Shown: positions 2,966 through 47,474, numbered from the stretch's first letter. The stretch: 64,000 nt of DNA from Parcubacteria group bacterium LiPW_30 (GCA_007375595.1 VMEP01000001.1:178816-242815), one strand, 5' to 3'. Notes: generated from the letters alone by a model not told the origin. Made by a program: numbers and translations.

Positions 2966-3051
2966 TTTTCCTTTTTAAAAACATTACGGAGCGCTCGGCG
3001 CAAGTATAGAAAAATTCAGCAGAATTTTATCGTGTTTTTAAAAAGGAAAAG
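2966..3051. repeat. 86-bp element with 18-bp terminal inverted repeats CTTTTCCTTTTTAAAAAC flanking two GC hairpins (copy 1 of 2; MITE-like or structured intergenic RNA)
   Basis: Arms at 2966-2983 and 3034-3051 are exact reverse complements. Interior contains acggagcgctcggcgc and the hairpin aaaattcagcagaatttt. A second copy lies at 7416-7502. Confidence 0.6.
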
Positions 3052-3103
3052 TAAAAAATAAACACCCTTTAGTTTAAAGACAAAATAAAGTATTATTTGA
3101 GGA

Positions 3104-4804
3104 ATGCAAGAATTTGATGATAAAAAACAAGACGACCGTTTATCTTTTTTACGAAAGAAAGAAGAGGAGGATCTTATAAAAATACTATCTGACAAATATG
3201 GGATACCTTACATAGACCTCTCTACTGTTTCAATTGAAGGCGATGCTCTTAAAATAATCTCTGAAGAAAAAGCTCGAGCAGCTGAAATTGCACCATTCCA
3301 GTTAATAAACAAAAAGGCCTTTATTGCTGTTCGCTCCCCTGATCGCAATGACACAAAAATAGCTTTGGAGGAAATTTCTTCAAAAGGATATTTCCCAACT
3401 TTATTTATCACCTCAACGGCAAGCCTAGAACGAGTTTGGGGGCGCTATAAAGAAGTTTCTTTTGCTTCTGAGTCAAAATCTGGACTTCTTGATGTTTCTG
3501 CTGAATTTCTAAACGAAGCATTTGAGAAAATAAAAACAATTCCCGACATAACCAATATGGTTAATGATGTTTTAAGCAAAACTGGTGGACACAAAATATC
3601 GGTGATGTTGGAAATTCTTCTTGCGGGATCAGTTGCTGTTGGAGCATCCGATATTCATATAGAACCAGAGGATGAAAATGTTCATATTAGGGCACGTCTT
3701 GATGGTGTTCTTGAAAACCTTCTCACTATAAACTATGAAACCTACAAACTTCTTTCTTCTAGAATTAAACTACTTTCTGGACTAAAACTAAATGTTAAAG
3801 CTTCTGCTCAAGACGGACGATTCAGTATCAAATTAAACGAAAAAGAAATTGAAATACGTTCTTCTGTTATTCCGGGAGCATATGGGGAATCTTTTGTTAT
3901 GCGTGTTTTAAACCCAGAAAATATTGCTGTCCCATTTGAAGAGTTGGGTGTGAATAAATACCTTTTTGAAATTATTGAGAAAGAACTAAAACGCCCTAAT
4001 GGAATTATCTTAACCACCGGACCAACCGGCTCCGGAAAGACAACAACCCTCTATGCTTTTTTGCGTAAAATTTATTCTCCTGGAAACAAGATGATTACCA
4101 TTGAAGATCCGATTGAGTATCACTTAGAAGGAATCACTCAAACTCAAACAAACGAAGAGAAGGGTTATACCTTCTTGGAAGGGTTGAGGTCAGCCTTGCG
4201 CCAAGATCCAGACGTAATAATGGTTGGTGAAATTCGAGACACCGAAACAGCAAAAATTGCTATTAACTCCGCACTAACAGGACACTTAGTTTTTTCAACA
4301 CTACACACAAACACCGCAGCTGGTGCTATTCCAAGACTAATAGACCTAGGGGTTGATGCTAAAATAATCAGCTCTGCTCTTAATGTCTCCCTTGCTCAAC
4401 GTTTAGCTCGCAAACTTTGTTCTTCTTGTAAAAAAGAATCTCCTGCCACAGACGACGAAAAAAGAATTTTAACTGCCGTTGTCGAGAGAATTAAGGAAGA
4501 GAAAAAGGAGTATGCATTAGAACCAATTGAGTCTCTTCTCCCTGTCACGAATCTTTTCCAACCAGTTGGTTGTGAAAAATGTAACAACACTGGGTTTAAG
4601 GGCCGTGTTGGTATTTACGAAGCAATCCTTACGGATGAAAACATAGAAAAAGCTATCACCGAAAACCCAACAGAGAGAGAATTGAAAAAAGCGAGTTTAT
4701 CGCAAAGGATTCTTGATTTACAAGAAGACGCTACTATTAAAATCATACAGGGAATAACCTCACTTTCAGAAGTTAGTCGTGTTGTCGATCTAGAGGAGGT
4801 CTAA
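3104..4804 (+). CDS. pilB: type IV pilus assembly / type II secretion ATPase, GspE/PilB family (stand-alone paralog)
   Basis: 566 aa. Walker A TTGPTGSGKTTTLYAFL, DPDVIMVGEIRD, and C-terminal CxxC...CxxC tetracysteine motif typical of PilB/GspE. N-terminal GspE-N domain. GAGGA RBS upstream. Confidence 0.85.
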   Translation: MQEFDDKKQDDRLSFLRKKEEEDLIKILSDKYGIPYIDLSTVSIEGDALKIISEEKARAAEIAPFQLINKKAFIAVRSPDRNDTKIALEEISSKGYFPTLFITSTASLERVWGRYKEVSFASESKSGLLDVSAEFLNEAFEKIKTIPDITNMVNDVLSKTGGHKISVMLEILLAGSVAVGASDIHIEPEDENVHIRARLDGVLENLLTINYETYKLLSSRIKLLSGLKLNVKASAQDGRFSIKLNEKEIEIRSSVIPGAYGESFVMRVLNPENIAVPFEELGVNKYLFEIIEKELKRPNGIILTTGPTGSGKTTTLYAFLRKIYSPGNKMITIEDPIEYHLEGITQTQTNEEKGYTFLEGLRSALRQDPDVIMVGEIRDTETAKIAINSALTGHLVFSTLHTNTAAGAIPRLIDLGVDAKIISSALNVSLAQRLARKLCSSCKKESPATDDEKRILTAVVERIKEEKKEYALEPIESLLPVTNLFQPVGCEKCNNTGFKGRVGIYEAILTDENIEKAITENPTERELKKASLSQRILDLQEDATIKIIQGITSLSEVSRVVDLEEV

Positions 4805-4829
4805 TTTTTTACCCAAAGTCTTGAAAAAC

Positions 4830-4860
4830 AAAAAAACACCGATAATTCGGTGTTTTTTGG
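4830..4860 (+). terminator. rho-independent terminator after pilB
   Basis: Hairpin acaccgataattcggtgt followed by a T-run. Confidence 0.55.
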
Positions 4861-5081
4861 AGATAAGAGTACAAACCTCTAAGTAATCCTTTCCGCAAAA
4901 GAGTGGAAAGGGAGAGAGTATCTGCAAGGATAGTCTCAGCAAACACGCAAGCGTGCAACCAAAAACGTCCTCCAAACCCCTCCGGCAAGACACTAGGTCT
5001 CATTACTTAGAGATTTCTGCCCTCATCTAGAAAAGTGCTATAATTAGCTACGTTTCAATAAACTATCATAGTTATTAAAAT

Positions 5082-6134
5082 ATGTCAATAGGAAAAAATC
5101 CCAACACAAAAAGTTCCCTAAAAACAGAGACGGGTAACAAGGAAGAGCGAGACGACTCATTTCTAGATCAAACCCTCCGACCTTCACGTTGGGATGAATA
5201 TATTGGCCAACAAAACATCAAAGAAAACCTAAGAATTCTTTTAACCGCAGCAAAAGAACGTAACCATCCACCAGAACATATTCTTTTTTATGGACCTCCA
5301 GGACTTGGGAAGACAACTCTTGCTTATTTAATTGCCAAAGAAACAGGGGCGCAAATTAAAGTGACTTCTGGTCCCGCGATTGAAAAAGTTGGTGACCTTG
5401 CTTCTATTCTTACCAACCTACTTCCTGGTGATATTCTTTTTATCGATGAAATTCATCGTTTAAATAAAACTATCGAAGAAGTTCTCTATCCTGCTATGGA
5501 ATCTGGCTCACTTGATATCATTATTGGCAAAGGACCTTCCGCTCGCACAATCCAACTTGAGCTCCCGGCTTTCACATTAGTCGCCGCAACCACTCGAATT
5601 GCTTTATTGTCTGCCCCACTTCGCTCTCGTTTCTCTGGAGGAACATTTCGCCTCGAGTTTTATAGCGAAGACGAGATTAAAAAAATTATTGACCGCTCGG
5701 CAAATATTTTGGGAACATCACTTGTAAAAGAAGCTTCTCAAGCAATCGCCAAAAGAAGTAGATTTACTCCGCGTATGGCAAATTATTTACTAAAACGCTG
5801 TCGCGACTTTGCCCAAGTCCACAAAAAATCACTTTCGGAAGAGATAGTTAGTGATGCCTTAAAACTTCTTGGAGTAGATGACCTCGGTCTTTCTTTTTCC
5901 GACCGCCAAATACTTAACGTAATTATTGATAAGTTTAGGGGAGGACCTGTTGGCTTAGGGACAATCGCTGCGGCAACTGGTGAGGAAGAAGCAACAATTG
6001 AAGAAGTCATCGAGCCGTATTTAATTCAACTAGGACTTCTTGAGCGTACTACGAGAGGTCGCGTGGCAACGCCCCGTGCCTACGAACATCTTGGTTTTAA
6101 AATGCCATCAGATATACAAGAAAAACTCATCTAG
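5082..6134 (+). CDS. ruvB: Holliday junction branch migration helicase RuvB
   Basis: 350 aa. AAA+ motifs LFYGPPGLGKTTLA and FIDEIHRL. RuvB C-terminal winged helix. Confidence 0.9.
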   Translation: MSIGKNPNTKSSLKTETGNKEERDDSFLDQTLRPSRWDEYIGQQNIKENLRILLTAAKERNHPPEHILFYGPPGLGKTTLAYLIAKETGAQIKVTSGPAIEKVGDLASILTNLLPGDILFIDEIHRLNKTIEEVLYPAMESGSLDIIIGKGPSARTIQLELPAFTLVAATTRIALLSAPLRSRFSGGTFRLEFYSEDEIKKIIDRSANILGTSLVKEASQAIAKRSRFTPRMANYLLKRCRDFAQVHKKSLSEEIVSDALKLLGVDDLGLSFSDRQILNVIIDKFRGGPVGLGTIAAATGEEEATIEEVIEPYLIQLGLLERTTRGRVATPRAYEHLGFKMPSDIQEKLI

Positions 6135-6369
6135 TAGCTTTTAGGTCATAGCTGTTAGCTAATTAGAAAAACCGAGCTCAACCCCAGCCATATTTTTACA
6201 AAATAATTACTGGCGGGGCGCTTCGCCGTATGAGGATTGTCCTATTCGGACACGCACCCCGCGAGACAAAAATTTACCCAGTGGTATAGTGACATTATTA
6301 CAAAATATAACAGTAAAAATATAGCGGGGTGATGATTTTAATAGTCGTTTCACTCCTTAAAAATCAATC

Positions 6370-6900
6370 ATGTCTGGTCACTCAAAATGGTCTCAAATAA
6401 AAAGACAAAAAGGTAGCGAAGACGCAAAACGTAGTAAAGTTTTTGCGAAACTTGCTCGTGCAATATCCCAAGAATCAAAAAGGGTTAAAGGAGATATTAG
6501 CTCCCCTACTCTACGTGTGATGATTGATAAGGCAAAAAAAGAAAACATGCCTAAAGACACAATAGAGCGCGCCGTTAAAAAAGGAACGAGCGCCGATATG
6601 GGAGAATTATTTGAAGTTATGTATGAAGCTTATGGTCCTGGTGGTTCAGCAATACTTATCGAAGGATTAACCGACAGTAAAAACAGAAGCGCTGCTGAAA
6701 TTAAACATTTACTTTCTTTACACGACGCATCGTTTGCCTCACAAGGAGCTGCTGCTTGGGCTTTTAAAAAAGAAGGAGAGGAGTGGGTTCCACAAACAAC
6801 TGTTCCTCTTTCAGACGAGGATGGAAATAAACTTTCTGTCTTAATTGAAGAACTGGAAGAAAGAGATGACGTTCAGGGTGTTTATACTAACGGAAACTAG
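6370..6900 (+). CDS. YebC/PmpR-family DNA-binding regulator (short form)
   Basis: N-terminus MSGHSKWSQIKRQKG is the YebC family signature. Located between ruvB and ruvC, as in many bacteria. Confidence 0.8.
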   Translation: MSGHSKWSQIKRQKGSEDAKRSKVFAKLARAISQESKRVKGDISSPTLRVMIDKAKKENMPKDTIERAVKKGTSADMGELFEVMYEAYGPGGSAILIEGLTDSKNRSAAEIKHLLSLHDASFASQGAAAWAFKKEGEEWVPQTTVPLSDEDGNKLSVLIEELEERDDVQGVYTNGN

Positions 6901-6912
6901 TATTATCTAATT

Positions 6913-7389
6913 ATGCGTATCATCGCGATTGATCCAGGTCTTGAGAGAGTTGGTATCGCCATACTAGACAAAGAGCGGGGTGGTAAAGAAACTCTTGTTT
7001 TTTCGGAATGTTTTAAAACAAAATCTTCTTTAACACTTTCAGAAAGACTCAACTTAATTGGAGTTCATTTAAACGAGATTATTTTGGAATACAAACCAGA
7101 GGCCCTCGCAATTGAATCTCTTTTTTTCACAACCAATCAAAAGACTGCAATGGTGGTATCTCAAGCTCGTGGAGTTATTATTTACGAAGGTGCTAAAAAT
7201 AATCTTCCCATCTATGAATATACCCCCCTTCAGATAAAAGTAGCTGTCACTGGATATGGAAAGGCCACAAAAACACAAGTTGATTCAATGGTTCAAAAAC
7301 TAATAATCATCTCTAAAAAGATAAAATCGGACGACGAAATGGACGCTGTTGCCATAGGCCTAACCTGTTTTGCCTGCATAAGAAGTTAA
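6913..7389 (+). CDS. ruvC: Holliday junction resolvase RuvC
   Basis: 158 aa. MRIIAIDPGLERVGIAILD with catalytic Asp. Sits in the ruvB-yebC-ruvC neighbourhood. Confidence 0.85.
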   Translation: MRIIAIDPGLERVGIAILDKERGGKETLVFSECFKTKSSLTLSERLNLIGVHLNEIILEYKPEALAIESLFFTTNQKTAMVVSQARGVIIYEGAKNNLPIYEYTPLQIKVAVTGYGKATKTQVDSMVQKLIIISKKIKSDDEMDAVAIGLTCFACIRS

Positions 7390-7415
7390 ACGAGGGTGGT
7401 CAAAATCAAACACGT

Positions 7416-7502
7416 CTTTTCTTTTAAAAAACCTTACGGAGCGCGACGAGCGCGAGTAGAGAAAAACCCAGCAGGGTTCTATCGTGTTTTTTAAAAGAAA
7501 AG
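7416..7502. repeat. second copy of the TIR-flanked GC-hairpin element (arms CTTTTCTTTTAAAAAAC)
   Basis: Same architecture as 2966-3051. Contains ttacggagcgcgacgagcgcgag and a variant hairpin aaacccagcagggtt carrying compensatory changes relative to aaattcagcagaattt. Confidence 0.55.
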
Positions 7503-7645
7503 ATAAAAGACGCCTTATCCACACTTTTTAACTAAAAACATTGCGCTTTTTTTTGTTTTTGATACAACAGTGGGAGTTAGGGGTTTAAATTGAAAAATAT
7601 TGTTTAATTAAATGTGTATTTTATAAATTAAGTTTTTAACTTTAT

Positions 7646-7798
7646 ATGGATGACGAAATGAAGGAACCATTGTCCGAAGAAGCCCTAGATGGCATTTTGG
7701 GAGATGATCTCTTAGGAGATGACGGTCTACCAGATGACCTAGATGCTGATGACCTCGGCAGTGCTCCAATCAGCGAAGAAGACGAAGAAGTTTGGTAG
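7646..7798 (+). CDS. small (50 aa) extremely acidic protein MDDEMKEPLSEEALDGILGDDLLGDDGLPDDLDADDLGSAPISEEDEEVW
   Basis: ATG at 7646, TAG at 7796-7798, followed immediately by a strong terminator. Too short for the ORF track. Composition D/E/L-rich with DDL repeats. Confidence 0.35.
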   Translation: MDDEMKEPLSEEALDGILGDDLLGDDGLPDDLDADDLGSAPISEEDEEVW

Positions 7799-7800
7799 AA

Positions 7801-7829
7801 AAAAGCGGGACAATGTGTCCCGCTTTTTT
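7801..7829. terminator. bidirectional rho-independent terminator between acidic small ORF (+) and tyrS (-)
   Basis: Hairpin agcgggaca-atgt-gtcccgct with flanking A-run and T-run. Confidence 0.55.
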
Positions 7830-9026
7830 CTATTTAATACCGATCTTTATAAATCTTCTTTTACCAACTCGAAGTGTTACCGGGTTTGAAATCTTAAAAT
7901 AAGGATCTGTTATTTTTTCTTCCGTATCCATGTTTAAAACAGCTGACTCTAAGACCAATCTCTTCCATTCATTTTTTGAAGAAATAATTTTTTCTTTAAG
8001 TAACACTTCAACCAAAAGTTCTCCTTTATTAACCGCGACAGAAACTGCATCCTCTGAAACTCCACCCTTCTGGAAGGTCTTAATAAAATCATCTTCAGCT
8101 TCTTTTGCCTTTTTTGCTCCATGATAAAGAGAAACAATTTCTCTGCCGAGCCTCATTTTCGCGTCACGTGGATTTTCACCACTATCAATTGATTCCTTAA
8201 TGCTATTTATTTCCTCATCAGAAAGTCTGGTGCAAAGCGTGAAGTATTTCAAAATTAAATCATCTCGCACCGCCATAACCTTTCCATACATGTCATTTGG
8301 TTCATCTAAAAGATTTATGACGTTTCCCCAAGAAGAAGACATTTTTCTCCCATCTGTTCCCTCTAACATCTGGCAATTCATTATGTCTTGTTCTTCCTGT
8401 CCATAATGTTTTTGAATTGTGCGCCCAGCTTTTAAATTAAACAGTTGATCAAAACCACCAAGCTCAACATCGGCTTTTACAGCAACAGAGTCATATCCCT
8501 GCATCAAAGGGTAAAGAAATTCTCTTAGTGAAATTTCTTCACCTTTTTCAATACGATCAGCGAAATTCCTACGATGCGACATTTGTTGCAATGAAAAACA
8601 CTCTGCCAACTCAGCCACATCGTTAAAATTCAACTTTCTTAGCCATTTCGAATTAAAATGAAACTCTGCTTTTCTTAAATCTAAAACTTTTCCAACCTGA
8701 GCTCTATAATTTTTTAAATTATCTTTTACCTTCTTCGCAGTAAGCATTGGCCTCTTTTCCAATTTGTCTGATGGATCTCCCACTAATGCCGTAAAATCTC
8801 CAACGATAAAAACAACCTTATGCCCAAGATCTTGAAATTCTCGAAGTTTCCATAAAACAATTGCTCTCCCTATGTGTAAAAAAGGAGATGTTGGATCAAA
8901 CCCAAGTTTTACCCTAAGTTGTTTTCCAGAACGAAGCTTTTTTTCTAATGATTCCTTAACAAATACTTCCTCAACTGCATGGCTAAGTAGGTGCTTGATT
9001 TTTTCCTCATCAACGCTAACTTTCAT
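7830..9026 (-). CDS. tyrS: tyrosyl-tRNA synthetase (class I; C-terminal S4-like domain)
   Basis: GFDPTSPFLHIGR (HIGH region), GDFTALVGDPS, YPLMQGYD, GGFDQ and KMSSS motifs. C-terminal LRVGKRRFIKI S4-like tail. Length 398 aa fits TyrS rather than TrpS. Confidence 0.8.
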   Translation of the reverse strand: MKVSVDEEKIKHLLSHAVEEVFVKESLEKKLRSGKQLRVKLGFDPTSPFLHIGRAIVLWKLREFQDLGHKVVFIVGDFTALVGDPSDKLEKRPMLTAKKVKDNLKNYRAQVGKVLDLRKAEFHFNSKWLRKLNFNDVAELAECFSLQQMSHRRNFADRIEKGEEISLREFLYPLMQGYDSVAVKADVELGGFDQLFNLKAGRTIQKHYGQEEQDIMNCQMLEGTDGRKMSSSWGNVINLLDEPNDMYGKVMAVRDDLILKYFTLCTRLSDEEINSIKESIDSGENPRDAKMRLGREIVSLYHGAKKAKEAEDDFIKTFQKGGVSEDAVSVAVNKGELLVEVLLKEKIISSKNEWKRLVLESAVLNMDTEEKITDPYFKISNPVTLRVGKRRFIKIGIK

Positions 9027-9084
9027 ATCGAAAACTTTATCACAAAACCCTTTATTTGTCTTACTGTAAAGGATTTCACATGGT

Positions 9085-35445: not shown

Positions 35446-35802
35446 CTATAAGTGCTCCATGCAGGTTGTTGCTGCTGCATTTGCATCAAGTCTTTTTTCT
35501 TCTATTTCTTTTCCACAAACAGAACAAATACCGTATCCATTATTTTTTGTTCGAAGAATGGCGGCGTCGACTTCATTCAATCTTTTTTCTAGTTCTGATT
35601 GAGTGGCGGTGACCTCTTCAAAGTCTTCCATTAAATCAGCCATTTCGTTTTTATCAGAAACGCTTGCATCCATTACAGAAGGAACTGGTTCCCAGTCTTT
35701 TGGATTACTTGGGTTCTTTCTTCCGAGTGACTGCATCTCTTCTTCGAGAAGCTTTTTTTCTTCGGTTAATTTCTGTATGTATTTTTCGTAATTTTTTTCC
35801 AT
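35446..35802 (-). CDS. dksA: DksA/TraR-family C4 zinc-finger protein
   Basis: C-terminal CxxC...C zinc-finger signature (CSVCGKEIEEKRLDANAAATTCMEHL) plus N-terminal coiled coil. The ORF track start at 35847 is GTG inside a hairpin, so ATG at 35802 is preferred. Confidence 0.65.
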   Translation of the reverse strand: MEKNYEKYIQKLTEEKKLLEEEMQSLGRKNPSNPKDWEPVPSVMDASVSDKNEMADLMEDFEEVTATQSELEKRLNEVDAAILRTKNNGYGICSVCGKEIEEKRLDANAAATTCMEHL

Positions 35803-35926
35803 ATTTTTATTACGACGAGCGAGGATCGCATGAGTGAGTATTTTCACTCATGACGTTCGAGTCGACGTCGTATCAAAAGGTTAATACCTTTTATTTTATC
35901 ACAATCCTCCATTTTTTGAACACCAA

Positions 35927-40429: not shown

Positions 40430-40494
40430 ATTTGTATATTCATATAACTATATCATAAAAAAATAAATGGTATGACTATAAAATAAACTTTTAT

Positions 40495-40670: not shown

Positions 40671-40731
40671 GGAAAATCATTAAAATAGAGCGTGTTTATA
40701 TGTTTGTCATGGTAAAATATTTTACGACATC

Positions 40732-41655
40732 ATGACTCAAGATCTAAAGAGTTTAAAACAACAATTTCTTGAATATATTGAAATTGAACGTGGAAGAAGC
40801 TTAAAAACTGTTCGTAATTACGATGCTTATCTCGAGCGTTTTCTTACTCAAACAAACGCTAAATATCCAAAAGATATAACTGATGATTCCATAAGGGAAT
40901 TTCGTCTTTGGTTGAATAGACAAGAAGGTCGTCGCGAGCGTGGAATGAGTGCGGGAACGTTAAAAAAGAAAACCCAAAACTATTATTTGATTGCTTTACG
41001 TATTTTTCTTAAATATTTAATGAAAAGAGGTATCGAAGCTCTTTCCCCTGATCGTATTGAGCTTGCAAAGGTGGCAGAGAGGTCCCTTGATCTTATTTCT
41101 TTAGATGAATTAGAGCGATTACTTAAAGCTCCTGATGGCGAGGATTTAAAAAGCTTACGAGATAAGGCTATTTTAGAATTACTTTTCTCAACAGGGCTTC
41201 GTGTTTCGGAACTTTGCTCTCTTCCTCGTGATATTGATCTTCGCAAAGATGAATTTTCGGTACGAGGAAAAGGAGAAAAAGTACGGGTTGTCTTTCTTTC
41301 CGATTCAGCAAAAGAAGCAATTAAAAAATATTTAGCAAAGCGAGGAGATATGGAGGATGTTCTTTTTATTGGAACAGGAAGCGTTGGAAAAAAGAAAGGA
41401 GAAATAACACACCTAACGACCCGTTCGGTTGAAAGAATCGTTGCGCAATATGCAATTAAGGCCGGTATCTCAAAAAAAGTAACCCCACACGTTATCAGAC
41501 ACTCATTTGCCACAGACCTACTTGGTAATGGGGCAGATATTCGTTCTGTTCAAATGATGCTTGGGCATGCCAGTATTTCAACCACACAGATTTACACGCA
41601 CGTAACTGACAAGGCTCTCAGAGAAATACATAAGAAGTTCCACTCTAAAAAATAG
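40732..41655 (+). CDS. tyrosine recombinase, XerC/XerD family
   Basis: RHSFATDLLxxGADIRxVQxMLGHASISTTQIYTHV catalytic C-terminal signature including the Tyr. Confidence 0.8.
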   Translation: MTQDLKSLKQQFLEYIEIERGRSLKTVRNYDAYLERFLTQTNAKYPKDITDDSIREFRLWLNRQEGRRERGMSAGTLKKKTQNYYLIALRIFLKYLMKRGIEALSPDRIELAKVAERSLDLISLDELERLLKAPDGEDLKSLRDKAILELLFSTGLRVSELCSLPRDIDLRKDEFSVRGKGEKVRVVFLSDSAKEAIKKYLAKRGDMEDVLFIGTGSVGKKKGEITHLTTRSVERIVAQYAIKAGISKKVTPHVIRHSFATDLLGNGADIRSVQMMLGHASISTTQIYTHVTDKALREIHKKFHSKK

Positions 41656-41698
41656 GAATGTTTATGCGAAAAACAGAAAAGACGCCGTTTGGCGTCTT

Positions 41699-42016
41699 TT
41701 AGTCTGGAAATCCCGCATACCACTCAACCGAACCATCAGGTTTTAGGTTGAGAGATACGAAGACTTCCTCCCTCCCGTATTCCGGGAAGTTTTTTTCCAC
41801 ATAATCGATGATGTCAATAAGGGGAACACAGAGTGATATTTTTTTGTACGCACTACCAATGAAAAGCTTTTCCCCGTTTGTACAAACTCCCCAGTTGCCA
41901 TAGTGACAACCTTCCCCATCTCTCTCCATTTTTCCGATTAAACGCCCGACACTATAAATAGAACCATTGGGAAGCATAATACTAACCTCCTTTTTTGTAA
42001 TTTCTACATCTATCAT
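41699..42016 (-). CDS. hypothetical protein
   Basis: 105 aa ORF between xerC/D-like and xth; no recognisable motif. Confidence 0.4.
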   Translation of the reverse strand: MIDVEITKKEVSIMLPNGSIYSVGRLIGKMERDGEGCHYGNWGVCTNGEKLFIGSAYKKISLCVPLIDIIDYVEKNFPEYGREEVFVSLNLKPDGSVEWYAGFPD

Positions 42017-42033
42017 ATGCTAAAATAGAAAAA

Positions 42034-42807
42034 ATGAAAATAATCTCTTGGAATGTTAATGGTTTGCGGGCCGTGCATCGCAAGGACTTGCTTCTCCCTT
42101 TTATAAAGAAAGAAAAGCCAGATATTTTGTGTTTACAGGAAACTAAAGCTGAGGAAGTGCAATTACCAGAAGAAATAAAAAATATCCCTGGTTATTTTGG
42201 TTATTTCTCTCACTCAAAAGGACGGAAAGGATATAGTGGAGTTGGTATTTATACAAAAATAGCACCAGAAAAAATTGAAGAAGGAATGGGGATTAAAAAA
42301 TTTGATGATGAAGGAAGACTTCTAATTTTACACTTTAAAAATTTTGTACTTCTAAATGTTTATTTTCCAAACGGCGGAGGTGAACCTCATCGATTGAAAT
42401 ATAAACTAGATTTCTATGAAGAATTTTTAAAACATATCGAAAAATTAAAAAAGAAAAATAAAGAAATTATTTTTTGTGGAGATGTTAATGTTGCACATGA
42501 AGCAATAGATATTGCGAGACCGAAGGAAAATGAGAACCAGATTGGGTTTTTACCAGAAGAGCGCGCATGGATTGACGAATATATTGCGCATGGATATATA
42601 GATATTTTTCGTTATTTTAATCCGGAAAAACAAAATGCTTATACTTGGTGGGACATGAAAACTCGCGCGCGCGATAGGAATGTTGGGTGGAGAATAGATT
42701 ATTTTTTCGCTTCGCGCAGTTTGTTAAAAAAAATCACAGGAACAAAAATTCTTTCAGATGTTTTAGGCTCAGATCATTGCCCGATTACACTAACGTTGAG
42801 TGATTAA
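42034..42807 (+). CDS. xth: exodeoxyribonuclease III (AP endonuclease)
   Basis: MKIISWNVNGLRA..., an EEP-family AP-endonuclease signature; 257 aa. Confidence 0.85.
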   Translation: MKIISWNVNGLRAVHRKDLLLPFIKKEKPDILCLQETKAEEVQLPEEIKNIPGYFGYFSHSKGRKGYSGVGIYTKIAPEKIEEGMGIKKFDDEGRLLILHFKNFVLLNVYFPNGGGEPHRLKYKLDFYEEFLKHIEKLKKKNKEIIFCGDVNVAHEAIDIARPKENENQIGFLPEERAWIDEYIAHGYIDIFRYFNPEKQNAYTWWDMKTRARDRNVGWRIDYFFASRSLLKKITGTKILSDVLGSDHCPITLTLSD

Positions 42808-42844
42808 ATAAATAAAGGACACTTATGTTAATTAGTGTCCTTTA

Positions 42845-43000
42845 TTTATTTCGGCTAGCGAGGAGCGCGTGGACGAGTACTCTCGTACACAGCGTCCGAG
42901 CGAAGACGAAATACAGGTCTAATACTTCACCGCTTACAGTAATAAATCGCAGGCAAGGCGAGATAATACCCTGTCGGCTTGCCGTGAGAAACCTTTATTT
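42845..43000. repeat. GC-rich structured element related to 40495-40670; overlaps 3' end of cca
   Basis: Shares cgaggagcgcgtggacgag (the window-wide GGAGCGCG motif), ccgagcgaag and ataccctgtcggcttgccgtg with the other element. Confidence 0.35.
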
Positions 43001-44464
43001 TACCCAATGCTTTTTTCTTATCTCAGAGACTTCTTTTGATTCCTCCTCTTCTTTTTTAGCTTTTCCTTCCTCTCCCAACTTCTTTAGCTCTTCAATTGAG
43101 AGTTTTATCAGCTCAACTGAACGTTTTTCTAGATATTCAGTCGTATTTCTTTCTGGTTCATCAAGTACTTCCTCAAGTAGGGCATGTAAAACATAACCTA
43201 TTTTAGGGCCTGGAGTTTCATGTGTAACTTCCATAATACGTTTCCCGTCTATTTTTAACATAGCAACCGATATCGGCGCACGCATTGCTTCTTCAATCAT
43301 AGACTCATATTTTCTAAGCCGATACGGGGTCTCTTTTGGTCTTCCCATGCCGATACGGTCGCAGGCGCGAAGTTTCATTAAATCCCAAACATGTTCTGGC
43401 CCAACGTTTTTTACGATACGCCTTACTGCCGATAAGGTTATTTTGTCTACATCTGAGAAAAATAAATGGTAACGCACTAACTTTGAAACAACATCTACGA
43501 TTTCTCGTGGAAAACGCATTCTTTCAAGAATTTTTTTTGTTACACGTGAACCAACGACATCATGTCCATAGAAGGTGTAATCTTTCTTTTCGTCAGACCA
43601 ACGACGTGTTTCAGGCTTAGAAACATCATGAAATAGAGCAGAAAGTCTCACGTGTAACGGCCATTCACGATCTGCTGAGTGTTGCAACGCCCTTAGGTTA
43701 TGCTCCCAAACGTCATAGATATGGTCACCATTCTGTTTAACATTAATCCCCGCTTCTGTTTCAGGTGAAACATATTTAAGAATACCAAGCCGATTAGCTA
43801 AAACTATTCCAATCATTGGGTTTGGAGACATAATCAATTTAATGAATTCATCACGAATACGCTCCTGAGCAATTTTACCGAGGTTTTTAACGTTATTTTC
43901 CAAGGCTTTTTCGGTCTCATTGTTAATCATGAAACCTAATTCAGTAGCTAGTCTGATAGCTCTGAGGACACGAAGGGCATCTTCTGCAAATCTTTCTTCT
44001 GGATTACCAACAGCCCTGATAACTTTGTCCTTTATATCTTTTTGTCCGTTATACGGATCAACAATTTGTCCTTTAGTAATATCATAGGCGATTGCGTTTA
44101 TAGTGAAGTCTCGTCGCTTTAAATCATCTTCTAGGTTTTTACTAAAAACAACTGAATCTGGTCTGCGGTAGTCGCTATATTTTCCCTCAATTCGATATGG
44201 GGTTATTTCAACCACCTTTAAAGATTCATCTTCAGTATTTTCGTTCACAACACCAACTGTTCCATATTCATTTTCATAAAATGTTTTTGGAAAGATTTTG
44301 ATAATATCTTCCGGTCTTGCATTAGTTGTGAAATCCCAGTCTTTTGGTTTTCTTCCCGCCAACACATCACGAACACAACCTCCAACTAGATATGCTTCAA
44401 AACCAGCTTTTTCCAAAGATTCGCTTATGGCGCCTATGTTTTCTGGAATATTTTCCGGTTTCAT
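42995..44464 (-). CDS. cca: CCA-adding tRNA nucleotidyltransferase with HD domain
   Basis: GGCVRDxLLG...DxD polymerase-beta head motif plus HD domain. Adjacent to tRNA genes that do not encode CCA. Confidence 0.8.
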   Translation of the reverse strand: MKPENIPENIGAISESLEKAGFEAYLVGGCVRDVLAGRKPKDWDFTTNARPEDIIKIFPKTFYENEYGTVGVVNENTEDESLKVVEITPYRIEGKYSDYRRPDSVVFSKNLEDDLKRRDFTINAIAYDITKGQIVDPYNGQKDIKDKVIRAVGNPEERFAEDALRVLRAIRLATELGFMINNETEKALENNVKNLGKIAQERIRDEFIKLIMSPNPMIGIVLANRLGILKYVSPETEAGINVKQNGDHIYDVWEHNLRALQHSADREWPLHVRLSALFHDVSKPETRRWSDEKKDYTFYGHDVVGSRVTKKILERMRFPREIVDVVSKLVRYHLFFSDVDKITLSAVRRIVKNVGPEHVWDLMKLRACDRIGMGRPKETPYRLRKYESMIEEAMRAPISVAMLKIDGKRIMEVTHETPGPKIGYVLHALLEEVLDEPERNTTEYLEKRSVELIKLSIEELKKLGEEGKAKKEEEESKEVSEIRKKHWVK

Positions 44465-44528
44465 TGTTTAAAAATTTTACTCCAGGTTTTGATATTTTCC
44501 TAATTTTCCTTATGATGTATGGGATTAA

Positions 44529-44600
44529 GCCCCCGTAGTGAAATGGATATCACGACAGTCTTCGAAACTGTTATTCCAGGTTCGAATCCTGGCAGGGGCA
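44529..44600 (+). tRNA. tRNA-Arg (anticodon UCG); CCA not encoded; one C-A mismatch in acceptor stem
   Basis: Manual cloverleaf: acceptor GCCCCCG/CAGGGGC, D-stem GTGA/TCAC, anticodon stem ACAGT/ACTGT with loop CTTCGAA, T-arm CCAGG-TTCGAAT-CCTGG. Confidence 0.7.
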
Positions 44601-44608
44601 TATGAATA

Positions 44609-44725
44609 TGCCCCTGCCAGGATTCGAAAGCCGGAGCGCGACGGTGCGAGGCGGGGCTGCGCAAAAATTCAGCAGAATTTTATGCGTAGCCGAATCACTT
44701 TGTTTATAAGTCGTGACCGAATCCT
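44609..44725 (+). repeat. tRNA-tail element copy 1: 20-nt exact antisense of tRNA-Arg 3' end + conserved core AGCCGGAGCGCGACGGTGCGAGGCGGG + aaaattcagcagaatttt hairpin + cgtgaccgaatcc
   Basis: Sequence 44609-44628 is the exact reverse complement of tRNA positions 44581-44600 (8-nt spacer). Core shared with three other copies. Confidence 0.7.
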
Positions 44726-44775
44726 TGTTTTATTTGAACTTATCTTAATCTCTGTTAAAATACGTCGATAAAAAT

Positions 44776-44846
44776 GCGGGTATGGTTTAGTGGTAGAACA
44801 CGTCCTTGCCAAGGATGAGACGGGAGTTCGATTCTCCCTACCCGCA
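44776..44846 (+). tRNA. tRNA-Gly (anticodon GCC)
   Basis: GCGGGTA acceptor, anticodon loop CTTGCCAAG, T-arm GGGAGTTCGATTCTCCC, discriminator A. CCA not encoded. Confidence 0.85.
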
Positions 44847-44850
44847 CAAA

Positions 44851-44890
44851 ATTAAAATAACCCGTCTTTAAGACGGGTTATTTTAATTTT
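44851..44890 (+). terminator. rho-independent terminator after tRNA-Gly(GCC)
   Basis: aacccgtctttaagacgggtt hairpin followed by a T-rich run. Confidence 0.55.
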
Positions 44891-44891
44891 T

Positions 44892-45010
44892 GCAGAGGGA
44901 GAATCGAAAGCCGGAGCGCGACGGTGCGAGGCGGGCTTAATTGCGATAAGTGAAACAATTGAGAGACGGAGGCTGACGAGCCGAGTTGGGGTCGCTAATA
45001 TTACGGACAA
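44892..45010 (+). repeat. tRNA-tail element copy 2 (13-nt antisense of tRNA-Gly(GCC) T-arm + core + ~100 nt identical to copy 4; right end degenerate)
   Basis: gcagagggagaatcgaa then agccggagcgcgacggtgcgaggcgggcttaattgcgataagtgaaacaattgagagacggaggctgacgagccgagttggggtcgc, identical to 47340-47438. Confidence 0.65.
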
Positions 45011-45252
45011 TTTTTCACATAAATGAGCATATTTTGTAAAGAGTAATCTTATAAAAATAAGGCTAAAATAGGTCAAAAGTGGGGATAAGTCGGGGGACAA
45101 TGTTAATAAGAGACACTAAAATTGTCCAAGAAAAAGACCTTTAAATGCTCTAAAACGGCTTTAAATAAGGATATATTGTCTTTTTCCACAGAAACTGTTT
45201 ATAAAGTTTCACGTGAAACTAAAAAGGTGTTTATTTTGGTATATAATCATAT

Positions 45253-45672
45253 TTGATGGATTCAAAAGTATTGAAAAATAAGGAGAGGCAACAGGTTGGT
45301 AGACTTGGGGAAGATATTGCTTGTCGCTTTTTAGAAGAAAAAGGTTTCAGTGTTATTGATAGAAATTACAGAAAGTTTATTGGAGAAATAGACATTATTG
45401 CCAAAAAGGACAAAATTTTATACTTTGTTGAAGTAAAAACTGTTTCTCGTGAAAACTTCAAAGAAGGTGAAAGTGGGCCAACTTCTCAGTATAGGGCTGA
45501 GGATAATATTCATCCACAAAAGTTAAAGCGCTTAAGCAGAGCAATTAACTCCTATCTTTCAGAAAAAGTGGGAAATGTTGATTATGTTTGGCAATGCGAT
45601 GCGATTATTGTTAATTTATTCACTGCTAACAAGATTGCAAAAGTTAAATATTTAGAAAATATTTTTGCGTAA
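45253..45672 (+). CDS. YraN-family (UPF0102) putative endonuclease
   Basis: GEDIACRFLEEKGFSVIDRNYR...GEIDIIA...FVEVKTV matches the UPF0102 restriction-endonuclease-like fold signature. Confidence 0.7.
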   Translation: MMDSKVLKNKERQQVGRLGEDIACRFLEEKGFSVIDRNYRKFIGEIDIIAKKDKILYFVEVKTVSRENFKEGESGPTSQYRAEDNIHPQKLKRLSRAINSYLSEKVGNVDYVWQCDAIIVNLFTANKIAKVKYLENIFA

Positions 45673-45729
45673 TTTTTTGTTTTTTGTGATAGGATTGATA
45701 AATTGTCGGATTGGAGGGGTTTGTTTTTA

Positions 45730-45800
45730 CGGGGTGTAGTATAGAGGTAGTACGTCTGCTTTGGGAGCAGATAGCCCGAGTTCGATTCTCGGCACCCCGA
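45730..45800 (+). tRNA. tRNA-Pro (anticodon UGG)
   Basis: Acceptor CGGGGTG/CACCCCG, anticodon stem TCTGC/GCAGA with loop TTTGGGA (G37), T-arm CCGAG-TTCGATT-CTCGG. Confidence 0.8.
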
Positions 45801-45848
45801 ATGTAGCGAAGCATAGTGAGGGTTGAGCGAATGAACTGCTTCATTCGC

Positions 45849-45956
45849 GTCCGGAATCGAAAGCCGGAGCATGTCGCTCTGCGACAGCGAGGCGGGGTCG
45901 CGAGTACTTATGAGCAAAGCGAATTGGTAACTCGTGACCGATTCTCGGCACCCCGA
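45849..45956 (+). repeat. tRNA-tail element copy 3 (antisense T-arm of tRNA-Pro + variant core + exact 17-nt sense copy of tRNA-Pro 3' end)
   Basis: gtccggaatcgaaagccggagc...gaggcggggtcgcg...cgtgaccgATTCTCGGCACCCCGA; the last 17 nt equal tRNA positions 45784-45800. Confidence 0.65.
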
Positions 45957-45973
45957 CAATGTAACTAAAGTTT

Positions 45974-47128
45974 TTAATTTGTCTCACTGATCAATAAGAA
46001 CATTAGTGGGATAGATAGATTTTCACGAAAATCTTTTTGAATCAAATCCAAGTCTTGTGAAATAAATTCATTTAAGTTTTTTCCGGTTTCATTCTCTATT
46101 TTTCTATTAATATGACCAGGTGTAATAGCAAATAATTCTCTGGTGTTTGTTTCTTTTGTTTCTGTGCTTGTTGTAATAATTCCTTCAAGTTTCCCAGTTG
46201 AACGATTGACCACCGCTCCACCAGAAGATCCTTGCTGAGAAAGAATGTTTCCTTCAATTGAAATAATGTCTAGTAAAGCACCATCATGGAAGTTATATAA
46301 TTCTTTAATAACACCGATACTTGAGGTAAGAAAAAGATTTGTTTGAATTGTTACACCGCCTAAAAACCCAGCAGGGTAAGCAGAAATTAAGACAGGAAGG
46401 CCACGCAATACATTTTCTGGGTCTATGTTTGGCTCGAGATAGGGGAAGGTGAGTGGTAATTGTTTTCCGTCTGTTGTCCCAACAACACGAAGAAGGGCGA
46501 AATCGTCTTCACCTGTGCCAGTTGGCTTTTCTTGTTTGATAACTTTTGAATTTTCGGTTACCCATTTTTTTGAGACATAGATAGGTTCAATCAAAAAAGC
46601 TGGTGAAGCAGGGGAGCCTTGTCTTGCGATACAGGTTATATAATTTTTTACTCCGTAATCACGAAGTAGGAAGTATTGTCCAATGTGGGCATTTGTTAGA
46701 ATAACTCCTTTATCGCTAATAAAGACCCCACTTCCCGATAATGGCTTGAAATCGCCACCATTTTGAGTGGTACAAAGGATATTAACAATAGTACTGCGGG
46801 TTAGTGCATTCAGTGGTTCAAGAGGGAGAATTTCAAGCGTAATGGTGCGTGGGCTTGTGGAGGCGATAGCGATTGGTTCTGTTTTACTTACAGTTGTTGT
46901 TTTTAGATTTTTTGGGGTCGTTGTTGCGGTTTTTTTAAGTGAGTTTATGGTCGTTGTTCCTTTTTCTATTGATGATGTAATTTTGGGAGAATTGTTTTCG
47001 GTTTTTATTATATTAAGTGGTGTTGTTTGTATTTCTTTTTGAGTGTTGTGTATAGGGAATACCGAAAAAACCCCGGCGATGATGCCAATTATGGTGTTTT
47101 TTAAAATAATTCCTAAGGTTTCAAGCAT
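45974..47128 (-). CDS. membrane-anchored trypsin-like (S1) serine protease
   Basis: Catalytic triad contexts TNAHI (His), DFALLRV (Asp), GSSGGAV (Ser). N-terminal TM helix. No PDZ domain recognised. Confidence 0.7.
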   Translation of the reverse strand: MLETLGIILKNTIIGIIAGVFSVFPIHNTQKEIQTTPLNIIKTENNSPKITSSIEKGTTTINSLKKTATTTPKNLKTTTVSKTEPIAIASTSPRTITLEILPLEPLNALTRSTIVNILCTTQNGGDFKPLSGSGVFISDKGVILTNAHIGQYFLLRDYGVKNYITCIARQGSPASPAFLIEPIYVSKKWVTENSKVIKQEKPTGTGEDDFALLRVVGTTDGKQLPLTFPYLEPNIDPENVLRGLPVLISAYPAGFLGGVTIQTNLFLTSSIGVIKELYNFHDGALLDIISIEGNILSQQGSSGGAVVNRSTGKLEGIITTSTETKETNTRELFAITPGHINRKIENETGKNLNEFISQDLDLIQKDFRENLSIPLMFLLISETN

Positions 47129-47223
47129 TGATTTGTTGCTTCGTGATAAGTTTACTAAATATTACCTTATCTGATAATATGTCGGATACATAGTTTGCCA
47201 CTAAAGTGAGCATACTCGGGCAA

Positions 47224-47294
47224 GCGGGATTAGTTAAATGGTATAACTCCAGTTTTCCAAACTGGTGTCGGGAGTTCGATTCTCCCATCCCGCA
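47224..47294 (+). tRNA. tRNA-Gly (anticodon UCC)
   Basis: Acceptor GCGGGAT/ATCCCGC, anticodon stem CCAGT/ACTGG with loop TTTCCAA, T-arm GGGAG-TTCGATT-CTCCC. Confidence 0.85.
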
Positions 47295-47331
47295 CTGAAT
47301 TTTAACAAAACTAACTAAGGTTAGTTTTGTT

Positions 47332-47474
47332 GCGGGATGGGAGAATCGAAAGCCGGAGCGCGACGGTGCGAGGCGGGCTTAATTGCGATAAGTGAAACAA
47401 TTGAGAGACGGAGGCTGACGAGCCGAGTTGGGGTCGCCGAAGCAAATTATCCGTGACCGATTCCCATCCCGCAC
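47332..47474 (+). repeat. tRNA-tail element copy 4 (19-nt exact antisense of tRNA-Gly(UCC) 3' end + core + body shared with copy 2 + near-exact sense copy of tRNA 3' end)
   Basis: gcgggatgggagaatcgaa is the reverse complement of ttcgattctcccatcccgc. Right end cgtgaccgattcccatcccgcac. Confidence 0.7.

Follow-up and report, generated by a model that had tools for sequence, protein, structure and literature searches.

Islands and prophages of the T-loop class, which reside in tRNA and tmRNA genes, have as flanks a direct repeat that extends from the T-loop to slightly beyond the tRNA 3′ end; they use tmRNA as well as tRNA genes, accumulate in tandem at one tRNA, and carry restriction-modification and accessory cargo. 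The elements described here, which were recognized in a 64,000-nt stretch of DNA from Parcubacteria group bacterium LiPW_30 (GCA_007375595.1 VMEP01000001.1:178816-242815; hereafter the window), share these properties. Unlike such islands and prophages, however, most of the element copies are 100 to 250 bp long with no gene and no integrase, they possess a structured junction and an inverted attachment copy beside the right-hand repeat, and they have no matches in 2.9 million viral contigs, phage collections, or plasmid collections. Most units lack the integrase of their own that characterizes integrative elements of tRNA genes; one island (locus L119) has a recombinase.

Other described systems resemble the element in part. 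Integron cassettes and their attC sites are likewise strand-specific imperfect palindromes with a variable center, arrayed at a fixed anchor and without a recombinase of their own, whereas the element lacks the R″/R′ consensus, its junction is strongly conserved, and its anchor is a tRNA gene. Like REP, BIME, REPIN, Correia, BOX, RUP, and ERIC sequences and MITEs, it is short, noncoding, multicopy, hairpin forming, and modular, and the 86-nt TIR elements of the window resemble classic MITEs; unlike those repeats, its core is common to Patescibacteria and Elusimicrobia, most copies are fixed, in a single orientation, to the 3′ ends of tRNA genes, and the target tRNA supplies the sequence of the stems. 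In tRNA-like structures (the tRNA-like domain of tmRNA, viral TLS, mascRNA, and YrlA) the corresponding feature is the closing stem, which in tails 1 and 4 is an acceptor/T-stem helix of 17 to 19 bp followed by the discriminator base. Assignment to this class, or to a minihelix, was rejected: the stems are present in tails 1 and 4, but a whole junction takes the place of the element's T-loop, and there is no D or anticodon arm, at most one small hairpin.

Copies of a GC-Rich Motif in the Window

The GC-rich motif is real and far above chance expectation. The exact string GGAGCGCGACGGTGCGAG occurs three times, on the + strand at 44633, 44913, and 47355, whereas shuffled sequence gave 0.03 matches to its pattern with up to three mismatches. 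A covariance model (R1), trained on 49 copies from other genomes together with tail 1 of the window, matched eight copies in the 64 kb, located in the tails behind tRNA genes, in two TIR elements, and at 2792-2873 (Table 1). Tail modules scored 86, 59, 41, 36, and 32 bits (the best E-value, 5e-26, belonging to tail 1, itself in the training set), and the two TIR elements scored 26 and 25 bits. Seven of the eight copies are intergenic; the other (2792-2873) is positioned at the 5′ end of an unvalidated ORF or overlaps it.

Table 1. Coordinates of tRNA genes, tails, and TIR-type elements in the window
Feature	Position	Strand	Evidence and remarks
tRNA-Arg(TCG)	44529..44600	+	ARAGORN and Rfam tRNA, 64.9 bits; no encoded CCA; 3′ 19 nt are the template of the tail 1 arms
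Tail 1	44610..44724	+	R1 match 44614-44703, 86.4 bits, E = 5e-26; fold z = -3.65
Tail 1 left arm	44610-44628	+	exact reverse complement of last 19 nt of tRNA-Arg
Tail 1 P2, containing the flagged motif	44630-44652	+
Tail 1 P3 (GGCUGC...GUAGCC) with CAGCAG hairpin	44655-44691	+
Tail 1 remnant GTGACC|GAATCC	44713-44724	+
tRNA-Gly(GCC)	44776..44847	+	ARAGORN, Rfam
Tail 2, 3′ side truncated	44892..44995	+	R1 match 44894-44963, 35.9 bits
Tail 2 degenerate left arm	44892-44908
Tail 2 P2 module A, followed by hairpin	44910-44932
Tail 2 module B	44965-44987
Tail 2 P3 5′ strand GGUCGC	44990-44995
tRNA-Pro(TGG)	45730..45800	+	ARAGORN, Rfam
Tail 3 (class II)	45827..45957	+	R1 match 45847-45951, 58.7 bits; fold z = -2.92
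Tail 3 5′ small hairpin	45827-45848	+	loop AACUGCUU
Tail 3 left arm	45850-45859
Tail 3 P2 with long hairpin	45863-45893
Tail 3 P3	45896-45939
Tail 3 direct repeat of tRNA-Pro 3′ end	45940-45957	+	repeat family D4
tRNA-Gly(TCC)	47224..47295	+	ARAGORN, Rfam
Tail 4	47332..47474	+	R1 matches 47345-47389 (32.2 bits) and 47391-47470 (40.9 bits); fold -59 kcal/mol, z = -4.02
Tail 4 left arm	47332-47350	+	reverse complement of 3′ 19 nt of tRNA-Gly(TCC)
Tail 4 module A, followed by hairpin	47352-47374
Tail 4 module B	47407-47429
Tail 4 P3	47432-47458
Tail 4 direct repeat of tRNA 3′ end	47459-47474	+	one base deleted
Terminator 3′ of tail 4	47488-47503
E1, TIR type	2966..3051	+	R1 match 2971-3045, 24.9 bits, E = 1e-5; fold z = -6.65
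E2, TIR type	7416..7502	+	R1 match 7421-7497, 26.4 bits, E = 3e-6; fold z = -4.11
E3, TIR type	2792..2873	-	R1 36.1 bits, E = 2e-9; pattern match at 3 mismatches, 2837-2854

The sequence-only reading had placed the motif in all four tRNA tails. Three of them hold an identical GGAGCGCGACGGTGCGAG, but the tRNA-Pro tail carries a longer hairpin in the same frame, GGAGC-ATGTCGCTCTGCGACA-GCGAGG at 45866-45892, and the wording that all four are identical was therefore slightly overstated. Together the four tails contain six modules, since tails 2 and 4 have two each; the second of these is GAC-GGA-GGCUGACGAGCC-GA-GUU (repeat family D1), and the same two tails are identical over 99 nt (repeat family D2). 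Neither GTGACC nor the direct repeat is present in tail 2; the orthologous tail at locus L027 is complete, direct repeat included.

The motif also stands in the first two TIR elements exactly as had been quoted. A sub-hairpin is indeed common to E1 and tail 1, the 20-nt aaaaattcagcagaatttta recurring without a mismatch at 3010-3029 and 44664-44683, and the counterpart in E2 is aaacccagcagggtt, in which the stem changes are compensated. The architecture of E1 is an AT-rich 19-bp closing stem around UAC-GGA-[GCGC UCG GCGC]-AA-GUA and the CAGCAG hairpin; E2, which has similar 19-bp inverted termini, lies between convergent ruvC and tRNA-synthetase genes; and the closing stem of E3 is CUCUAAAAUGC/GCAUUUUAGGG. 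All of these TIR-type copies are remote from any tRNA, and no target-site duplication was evident from reading the flanks of E1 and E2.

Two further proposed members fell away. The element at 42845-43000 gave no R1 match at E ≤ 10 and no Rfam match, its resemblance being a loose GGAGCGCG...CGAG only, and the string at 35811-35830, placed in the dksA leader by the sequence-only reading, likewise gave no R1 match at E ≤ 10 and lies within the N-terminal coding part of ORF 35446-35847. What had been counted as at least three repeat families in unrelated intergenic contexts is reduced to one: the tails and TIR elements do carry the motif, as variants of a single family, and the 42845 element is outside it. 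Element E3, the second modules of tails 2 and 4, the larger junction, the link with tRNA 3′ ends, and the phylogenetic spread did not figure in that reading.

A Conserved Three-Way Junction

On the tRNA-sense strand, the flagged motif forms the P2 helix of a three-way junction, conserved and 70 to 160 nt in size; core length varies between 64 and 159 nt. The order is P1, GAAA, P2, GG, and P3, with P3 leading into P1 without an intervening nucleotide. Helix P2 consists of GCC/GGC, an asymmetric GGA/GA loop, and a variable hairpin (GCC-GGA-[hairpin]-GA-GGC), and the loop may form tandem G.A pairs; one element can contain as many as three of these GA-facing-GA modules. Helix P3 is GGUCGC/GUGACC with a near-universal G.U pair, followed by a variable hairpin. 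The GGA/GA loop is reminiscent of kink-turns and the sheared G.A motifs bound by L7Ae-type proteins, in which GA faces GA across an asymmetric loop beside a short GC helix. A kink-turn was nevertheless rejected, as one unpaired base (G) precedes the GA/GA instead of a 3-nt bulge, and the GCC/GGC pairs below the loop are three true pairs because they covary.

Among 133 distinct copies, 90% of cells are paired, compared with 36 to 46% when the partners are slid, and compensatory changes occur at 29 of 31 pairs (866 cells), values reached by none of 500 shuffles. At one position of P3, 122 of the 133 copies have G.U and none has G-C; for the third pair further on in P3, 53 copies have GC, 39 GU, and 24 AU, none having A.C, and G.U vastly exceeds A.C across P3. 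Folding is strand-specific, and folds are better on the + strand. Covariation and strand-specific folding support a structured single-strand module, one of the functional sites that the sequence-only reading had proposed, and the conserved GGA/GA loop may have a protein partner. Another of its proposals, a DNA-uptake-type signal, was not supported. A double-stranded protein-binding site, an uptake signal, or a chance likeness of unrelated repeats would each account for a short GC-rich string recurring in an AT-rich genome, but compensatory changes preserve the pairing and not the sequence, G.U is preferred to A.C in P3, and model E-values descend to 5e-26. Uptake sequences are in excess genome-wide, in genes, and in both orientations, whereas there are eight copies in 64 kb, seven of them intergenic, and orientation is tied to tRNAs. 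This group of explanations is already contradicted, and we give it next to no weight.

About 35 near-invariant nucleotides are clustered at the junction. Together with the invariant G.U and the zero-nucleotide passage from P3 to P1, this concentration would suit a new small self-cleaving or self-ligating ribozyme, in which P1 would be the substrate helix, P3 and P1 would meet at the scissile bond (GUGACC|GA), and the target would be its own transcript or the tRNA T-loop. Small ribozymes are often associated with mobile elements, and HDV-like theta ribozymes have been reported downstream of phage tRNAs. Yet no Rfam ribozyme family matched even at E ≤ 10, the HDV family included, and a protein partner would explain the conserved nucleotides equally well. 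The hammerhead was rejected as well: GAAA is present at J1/2, but there is no Rfam match, and the core is a misfit because the strand in the CUGANGA position (GUGACCGA) forms a covarying helix with GGUCGC (U-A to C-G and C-G to U-A). We regard a ribozyme as quite improbable.

The element is uncatalogued and is present in many ultra-small (CPR) bacteria and in Elusimicrobia. Among the matches listed, genomes supplied more than 118 loci with the same core and metagenomes more than 120, in Saccharibacteria, Paceibacterota, other Patescibacteria, and Elusimicrobia. Only tRNA and tmRNA exceeded the Rfam 15 gathering threshold in the window and 16 loci, nothing relevant was detected in 44400-47600 even at E ≤ 10, and the literature searched contained no description of the element.

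The Closing Stem and the Neighboring tRNA

In the closing stem P1, one strand is copied, as the reverse complement, from the T-loop and the 3′ strands of the T stem and acceptor stem of the neighboring tRNA; the strand paired with it is a direct repeat of the same segment. The chromosomal order is tRNA, short spacer, reverse-complement arm, core, and tRNA 3′-end repeat. Almost without exception the core follows a same-strand tRNA or tmRNA gene at a distance of 20 to 120 nt. Such a gene ends less than 400 nt upstream in 107 of the 126 genome matches listed, and one is found within 300 nt in 96 of the 122 metagenome matches listed; 102 of 135 R1 matches lie up to 300 nt downstream of a same-strand tRNA, compared with four for the opposite strand. 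The element occurs behind genes for 20 tRNA isotypes and for tmRNA. At about 47 of 107 loci the core is followed by a duplicate of the tRNA 3′ end (17 to 20 nt, at most one mismatch), and this direct repeat starts at C56 of the T-loop and ends mostly 0 to 5 nt past the tRNA. In most other genomes the T-stem part alone pairs in the closing stem, and at locus L061 the arms derive from the last 4 nt of the tRNA and its trailer, not from the T-loop.

The left arm copies the complement of the tRNA 3′ strand and not the tRNA 5′ strand; for tRNA-Arg of the window, the 5′ strand is GCCCCCG and the tail arm is GCCCCTG. Of the positions that distinguish tRNA from repeat, the left arm shows the tRNA base at 77, the repeat base at 16, and neither at 18. 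From these sequence comparisons the arms look as if they were made to match the tRNA and then decayed independently. The inner 5 to 7 bp of P1 and the core are better preserved than the outer arms.

This arrangement could also be that of a cis-acting RNA in the tRNA 3′ trailer that benefits the host by aiding 3′ maturation or by insulation, either as an entry site for RNase P, RNase Z, or RNase III behind tRNA genes lacking CCA or as a shield of tRNA folding from read-through transcripts. The tail is on the tRNA strand, the tRNA genes of the window encode no CCA, and a window scan found no terminator between tRNA and tail. Among the sampled loci, which were selected for having an element, 105 of 196 tRNA and tmRNA genes bear one, and the core and inner P1 are conserved over two phyla. 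Copies are, however, often truncated or degenerate, as in tail 2 and the tail 1 repeats; presence varies among close relatives and among tRNAs; a terminator-like hairpin frequently stands between tRNA and tail in other genomes; the outer arms decay without compensation; TIR-type copies are far from tRNAs; and identity to the 3′ end of the tRNA itself is unneeded for a processing role. We consider a host-beneficial RNA unlikely.

Proposed Insertion of the Element and Accessory Genes

Some loci have the appearance of insertions. Three identical units stand in tandem at L050, and at three loci accessory genes are interposed between the tRNA and the core, with a tRNA 3′-end copy past the core (L086, 2.0 kb; L079, 1.6 kb; L119, 12.3 kb). 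Restriction-modification genes are among the cargo of L119, as is a large serine recombinase of which neither the window nor the remaining 118 genome loci contain a homologue; no recombinase domain or match was detected in the cargo of L086 and L079. No recombinase gene was found beside the great majority of copies, and most units have no ORF. Close relatives (about 90% identity) have differing cores at orthologous tRNAs, and L015 is tail-less at two. Tandem arrays, interposed accessory genes, and fast turnover together point to a mostly cargo-free insertion element.

Our preferred reading, to which we assign a probability of roughly 45% as a whole (including entry, transcription, release, and TIR derivation), is that a selfish insertion cassette, in most cases without cargo, has the junction as its conserved end module. 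The cassette would enter by recombination within the segment from T-loop to 3′ end of tRNA and tmRNA genes, regenerating the tRNA on one side and leaving the duplicated 3′ end on the other; units would pile up in tandem, 1 to 12 kb of accessory genes could sit between tRNA and core, and copies within a genome would be homogenized via gene conversion. Transcription is predicted to occur by read-through from the tRNA promoter; in the window, promoter-like sites were found upstream of tRNA-Arg and tRNA-Gly(GCC), and the sole terminator stands after the tail 4 repeat. The closing stem, similar to a tRNA acceptor/T minihelix, would provide an access point at which RNase P, RNase Z, or RNase III could free the RNA. 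Selection would act on the released junction RNA, whose partner is probably a conserved protein; this may be the recombinase responsible for mobility. The 86-nt TIR elements would be derivatives in which the tRNA-derived stem was swapped for an arbitrary AT-rich one.

Several observations run against insertion. Large serine recombinases do not generate 20-bp repeats by their usual chemistry, and this applies to the L119 enzyme; the accessory genes may be later arrivals in the spacers of preexisting tails; and neither a free or circular form nor a high-identity pair of empty and filled sites was seen among the loci examined. A strictly T-loop-specific recombinase would not produce the L061 arms, no third copy of the arm was found near the TIR-type copies, and the better-kept inner P1 and core could also reflect a benefit of the RNA to the host.

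The same cassette-like features would fit a recombination site of folded single-stranded DNA resembling attC, with the tRNA 3′ end as attI, the spacer-plus-tail units as cassettes, and a recombinase encoded elsewhere. The element is an imperfect palindrome with a variable middle and strand-specific folding, units without a recombinase of their own stand in tandem at a fixed anchor, the apparently newest insert adjoins the tRNA in L086, and small accessory genes lie between anchor and folded site. The base of P1, on the other hand, reads ..(A/T)TCG / CGA(A/T).., derived from the tRNA T-loop, and not R″ RYYYAAC / R′ GTTRRRY; core conservation is far above that of attC sites; the ORFs scanned beside the tails included no integron-type integrase; tandem G.A loops and an invariant G.U are seen more typically in RNA; and a strong co-oriented tRNA promoter is a simpler route to a single-stranded form. 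We consider an attC-like site improbable.

A bolder reading, and a rather unlikely one, is that the junction is the RNA component of a hitherto undescribed, homology-guided insertion system. Its arms, one complementary and one identical to the tRNA 3′ segment, would be written from the target, and the RNA or a recruited recombinase would direct insertion; a catalytic, ribozyme version of such a system may also be envisaged. If the homology-guided reading were true, the element would represent a tRNA-anchored cassette platform common to Patescibacteria and Elusimicrobia.

Motif membership and anatomy of the element

The window is AT-rich (GC ~38%), and the four tRNA genes of its 44.5-47.3 kb block, Arg-TCG, Gly-GCC, Pro-TGG and Gly-TCC, all lack an encoded CCA. 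The recurrence of a GC-rich motif in this DNA, flagged by a sequence-only reading, is above chance: GGAGCGCGACGGTGCGAG is present in three exact copies, compared with 0.03 matches (allowing up to 3 mismatches) in shuffled sequence. The motif had been reported from the elements behind all four tRNAs (tails 1 to 4, in gene order); it is exact behind three of them, and the tRNA-Pro tail carries the inexact form GGAGC...GCGAGG with a longer hairpin. Both 86-nt TIR elements contain the motif as quoted, and the CAGCAG hairpin is shared or compensated among copies as first described. Using a covariance model of the element (R1), we obtained eight matches in the window with E values from 5e-26 to 1e-5, both TIR elements among them. 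The eight also include a TIR-type copy missing from the earlier list; it lies head-to-head with the copy at 2966 and overlaps the 5′ end of a predicted ORF that has no Pfam match and whose start may be mis-called. Two other proposed members, an element at 42845 and a string in the dksA leader, had no R1 match at E ≤ 10, and the latter lies within coding sequence. The 42845 stretch is flanked by an exonuclease gene and the CCA-adding enzyme gene, Rfam gives no match to it, and a hairpin at its upstream edge looks like the terminator of the preceding gene.

When the plus strand is folded, every copy shows a common module, in which three pairs lead to an asymmetric GGA/GA loop and then to a short GC hairpin. 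The module in the tails is arm P2 of a three-way junction that runs from the closing stem P1 through GAAA, P2, GG and the third arm, P3, and then back into P1 without a gap. P2 is composed of GCC/GGC, the GGA/GA loop and a variable hairpin, and P3 of GGUCGC/GUGACC and a variable hairpin with CAGCAG often at its tip; in tails 2 and 4 the module is present twice, the second time as GAC-GGA-GGCUGACGAGCC-GA-GUU. The 3′ strand of P1 directly repeats the stretch of the upstream tRNA between C56 in the T-loop and the discriminator, and the reverse complement of this stretch makes up the 5′ strand; P1 in tails 1 and 4 is a helix of 17-19 bp with the sequence of the T stem plus the acceptor stem. Because the 5′ end of tRNA-Arg reads GCCCCCG but the arm reads GCCCCTG, and because the T-loop (AATCGAA or ATTCGAA) is complemented too, the 5′ strand of P1 is templated on the 3′ strand and does not derive from the tRNA 5′ end. 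Derivation of the tail from a degraded tRNA pseudogene, interrupted by an insert in the T-loop, was rejected, since the left arm complements the 3′ strand instead of copying the 5′ strand. The TIR elements retain P2 and the CAGCAG hairpin on arbitrary, AT-rich closing stems, and similar copies occur at two loci from other genomes (L089 and L035). Class II copies, among them tail 3, have a small 5′ hairpin with the loop AACUGCUU, complementary to the CAGCAG loop that tips P3 in class I. Kissing of the two loops is not supported, as both are seldom found in one copy (3/19 versus 36/93 in loci L001-L100); pairing between copies, or a common duplex-DNA site, is possible.

Distribution, covariation and folded strand

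A genome scan with the pattern TCGAAAGCCGGAGC-N(4-30)-GCGAGGCGG, restricted to one genome per species and with ~0.5 chance matches expected by our own estimate, detected at least 118 loci, and a metagenome scan at least 120. Among the genome loci listed are Saccharibacteria, Paceibacterota/Parcubacteria, Berkelbacteria, Moraniibacteriota and other Patescibacteria, together with Elusimicrobia (~14); a 26-bit Binataceae match (L066), inside coding sequence, was discarded as due to chance. Among the matches listed, the window organism is most closely related to L086 and L027, two MAGs of Saccharibacteria (identity ~90%). A tRNA or tmRNA on the same strand ends less than 400 nt upstream in 107 of the 126 genome matches listed, mostly 24-115 nt away, and those without one are mostly at locus edges; within 300 nt, the same is found for 96 of the 122 metagenome matches listed. 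No match to either of two patterns was detected in viral contigs, nor any match in phage and plasmid collections, and a phage or plasmid origin was rejected on these grounds. The tie of the family to tRNA and tmRNA 3′ ends, with a closing stem copied from the target, is solidly established.

In a first alignment of 50 short copies with structure assigned by hand, 90.6% of cells were paired, compared with 35-44% when partners were slid, and there were 231 double-sided changes; 0 of 500 shuffles reached the observed values. Across 731 kb of locus sequence R1 matched 135 copies, and in the resulting alignment pairing was 90% (36-46% slid), with compensatory changes at 29 of 31 pairs (866 cells). 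At one P3 pair, 122 of 133 copies have G.U, three have A-U and none has G-C; the third pair further along is GC in 53, GU in 39, AU in 24 and A.C in none. This preference for G.U over A.C indicates that the tRNA-sense strand is the one that folds. P1, unlike P3, has balanced G.U (70) and A.C (60), and only the core and the inner 5-7 bp of P1 are well kept. A conserved, strand-specific, structured element family is thus solidly supported. Among the readings offered from sequence, the structured module stands, and the data exclude a duplex-DNA site and an uptake signal, as they do chance similarity.

A folded DNA site of the attC type is a rival explanation; the element resembles attC sites in part and fails a defining test for them. 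The same holds for tRNA-targeting islands, tRNA minihelices and G.A loops, each of which it resembles in part while failing a defining test. It resembles MITEs in part as well, and no target-site duplication is evident in the flanks of the TIR elements. A new ribozyme is another rival; covariation and the Rfam results led us to reject a hammerhead or a classical kink-turn as the junction fold, and they make an HDV fold unlikely. No Rfam 15 family matches the element in the window and 16 loci, and the literature, searched also with raw sequence strings, yielded no description of it. We rate it as a kind of small structured element targeting tRNA genes, with a modest chance that the arm-making route, or the RNA itself, is categorically new.

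Signs of insertion at tRNA 3′ ends

In ~47 of 107 listed loci the core is followed by a copied tRNA 3′ end of 17-20 nt with no more than one mismatch, which starts at C56 and ends mostly 0-5 nt beyond the tRNA. L050 has three identical tandem units, and in several loci a full unit precedes part of a second. Tails are absent at Arg and Pro in L015, and cores at orthologous tRNAs differ between the window, L027 and L086. The Arg and Gly-GCC tails of L086 have 75 identical nucleotides in common, including an Arg-type arm, which indicates gene conversion between them. At positions where tRNA and downstream repeat differ, the left arm matches the tRNA in 77 cases, the repeat in 16 and neither of the two in 18, and mismatches to the tRNA in both arms average ~1.5 per 9 nt; the arms look as if they were made to match the tRNA and later drifted without compensation. 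A retroviral-type primer-binding site was rejected, given that TGG for CCA is absent, trailer sequence is present in the repeats and there is no nearby reverse transcriptase.

The spacer between tRNA and left arm is usually 5-60 nt and can hold genes (see the table). Such accessory genes could have entered later, into the palindrome that the tRNA end makes with its inverted copy. The largest insert, an island anchored at an intact tRNA-Gln, encodes a large serine recombinase, which we rejected as the general enzyme because a homolog is absent from the window and the other 118 genome loci; inverted repeats were not found at the island ends. The recurrent AAG(Y)GTAAUC(R)YGG insert of several genomes lies exactly between GACCGA and the remaining tRNA repeat, as if this junction were also used by another small module or marked by the scar of a recombination event. 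An insert without the core in L086, absent from L027, is flanked by a 30-nt direct repeat starting at ~tRNA position 44, more 5′ than the tail repeats, and may represent a second kind of insertion event at the same tRNA.

Coordinates of features in the window and in loci from other genomes (L-numbers)
Sequence	Position	Strand	Size	Feature
Window	1085-1210		30-nt units	Four to five tandem units (TGTGGCAAAGTTCTGCCACT...) within overlapping predicted ORFs
Window	2213-2863			Predicted ORF
Window	2792-2873	-		Additional TIR-type copy
Window	2966-3051	+	86 nt	TIR element
Window	7416-7502	+	86 nt	TIR element
Window	42806-42851			Hairpin
Window	42845-43000			GC-rich non-coding stretch
Window	42995-44464	-		CCA-adding enzyme gene
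Window	44.5-47.3 kb	+		Four tRNA genes
L015	2093-2106, 2150-2165		13-14 nt	AAG(Y)GTAAUC(R)YGG insert
L016, L009, L098, L088, L111			13-14 nt	AAG(Y)GTAAUC(R)YGG insert
L048/L119	~17600		13-14 nt	AAG(Y)GTAAUC(R)YGG insert
L079			1.6 kb	Spacer insert behind tRNA-Gly: small ORFs
L079	2350-2460, 3800-3810, 4095-4110			Short motif GGTTCTAAC, at least four occurrences in and around the 1.6-kb insert
L086			2.0 kb	Spacer insert: ribbon-helix-helix protein
L086	2893-3006		85 nt	Extra insert behind tRNA-Pro
L119			12.3 kb	Spacer insert: large serine recombinase, two C5 methylases, type ISP enzyme, ParB-methylase
L119	4945-4990			tRNA-Gln 5′-part fragment, ~130 nt upstream of intact tRNA-Gln
Metagenome loci				Spacer inserts: R-M, NYN-domain and lyase genes

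Expression, proposed mechanism and meaning

Promoter-like sites precede tRNA-Arg and tRNA-Gly(GCC) of the window, and the sole terminator of the tRNA block follows the tail 4 repeat; from these predicted signals, at least tails 1 and 4 should belong to tRNA transcripts. In other genomes a terminator-like hairpin is often found between tRNA and tail. A processing RNA useful to the host is a rival explanation of such tails. The CCA-adding enzyme gene is directly upstream of the tail-bearing, CCA-less tRNA cluster, and genes for RNase Y and HU are just downstream.

The reading we favor, to which we assign slightly less than an even chance as one whole (about 0.45), is that of a selfish, mostly cargo-free insertion cassette. 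It would recombine inside the segment from the tRNA T-loop to the 3′ end, be transcribed by read-through from the tRNA promoter and be under selection for its junction RNA, probably via a conserved protein partner. Against an insertion cassette stand the sole recombinase seen, in L119, which is not general, and the arms of one copy, which are built from trailer sequence.

If the family is what it appears to be, a widespread and strongly conserved structured RNA would join the very few non-coding elements known from the Candidate Phyla Radiation (CPR), an enormous and poorly understood share of bacterial diversity, and a large share of CPR tRNA and tmRNA genes would bear an appendage, parasitic or co-opted, with a stem copied from the tRNA end. 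The partner protein and the route of arm formation could disclose a new form of site-directed DNA insertion. In these reduced genomes the tails flag tRNA-adjacent spots that hold defense and other accessory genes, and their mimicry of tRNA 3′ ends can confuse the annotation of tRNAs and attachment sites in metagenome-assembled genomes.
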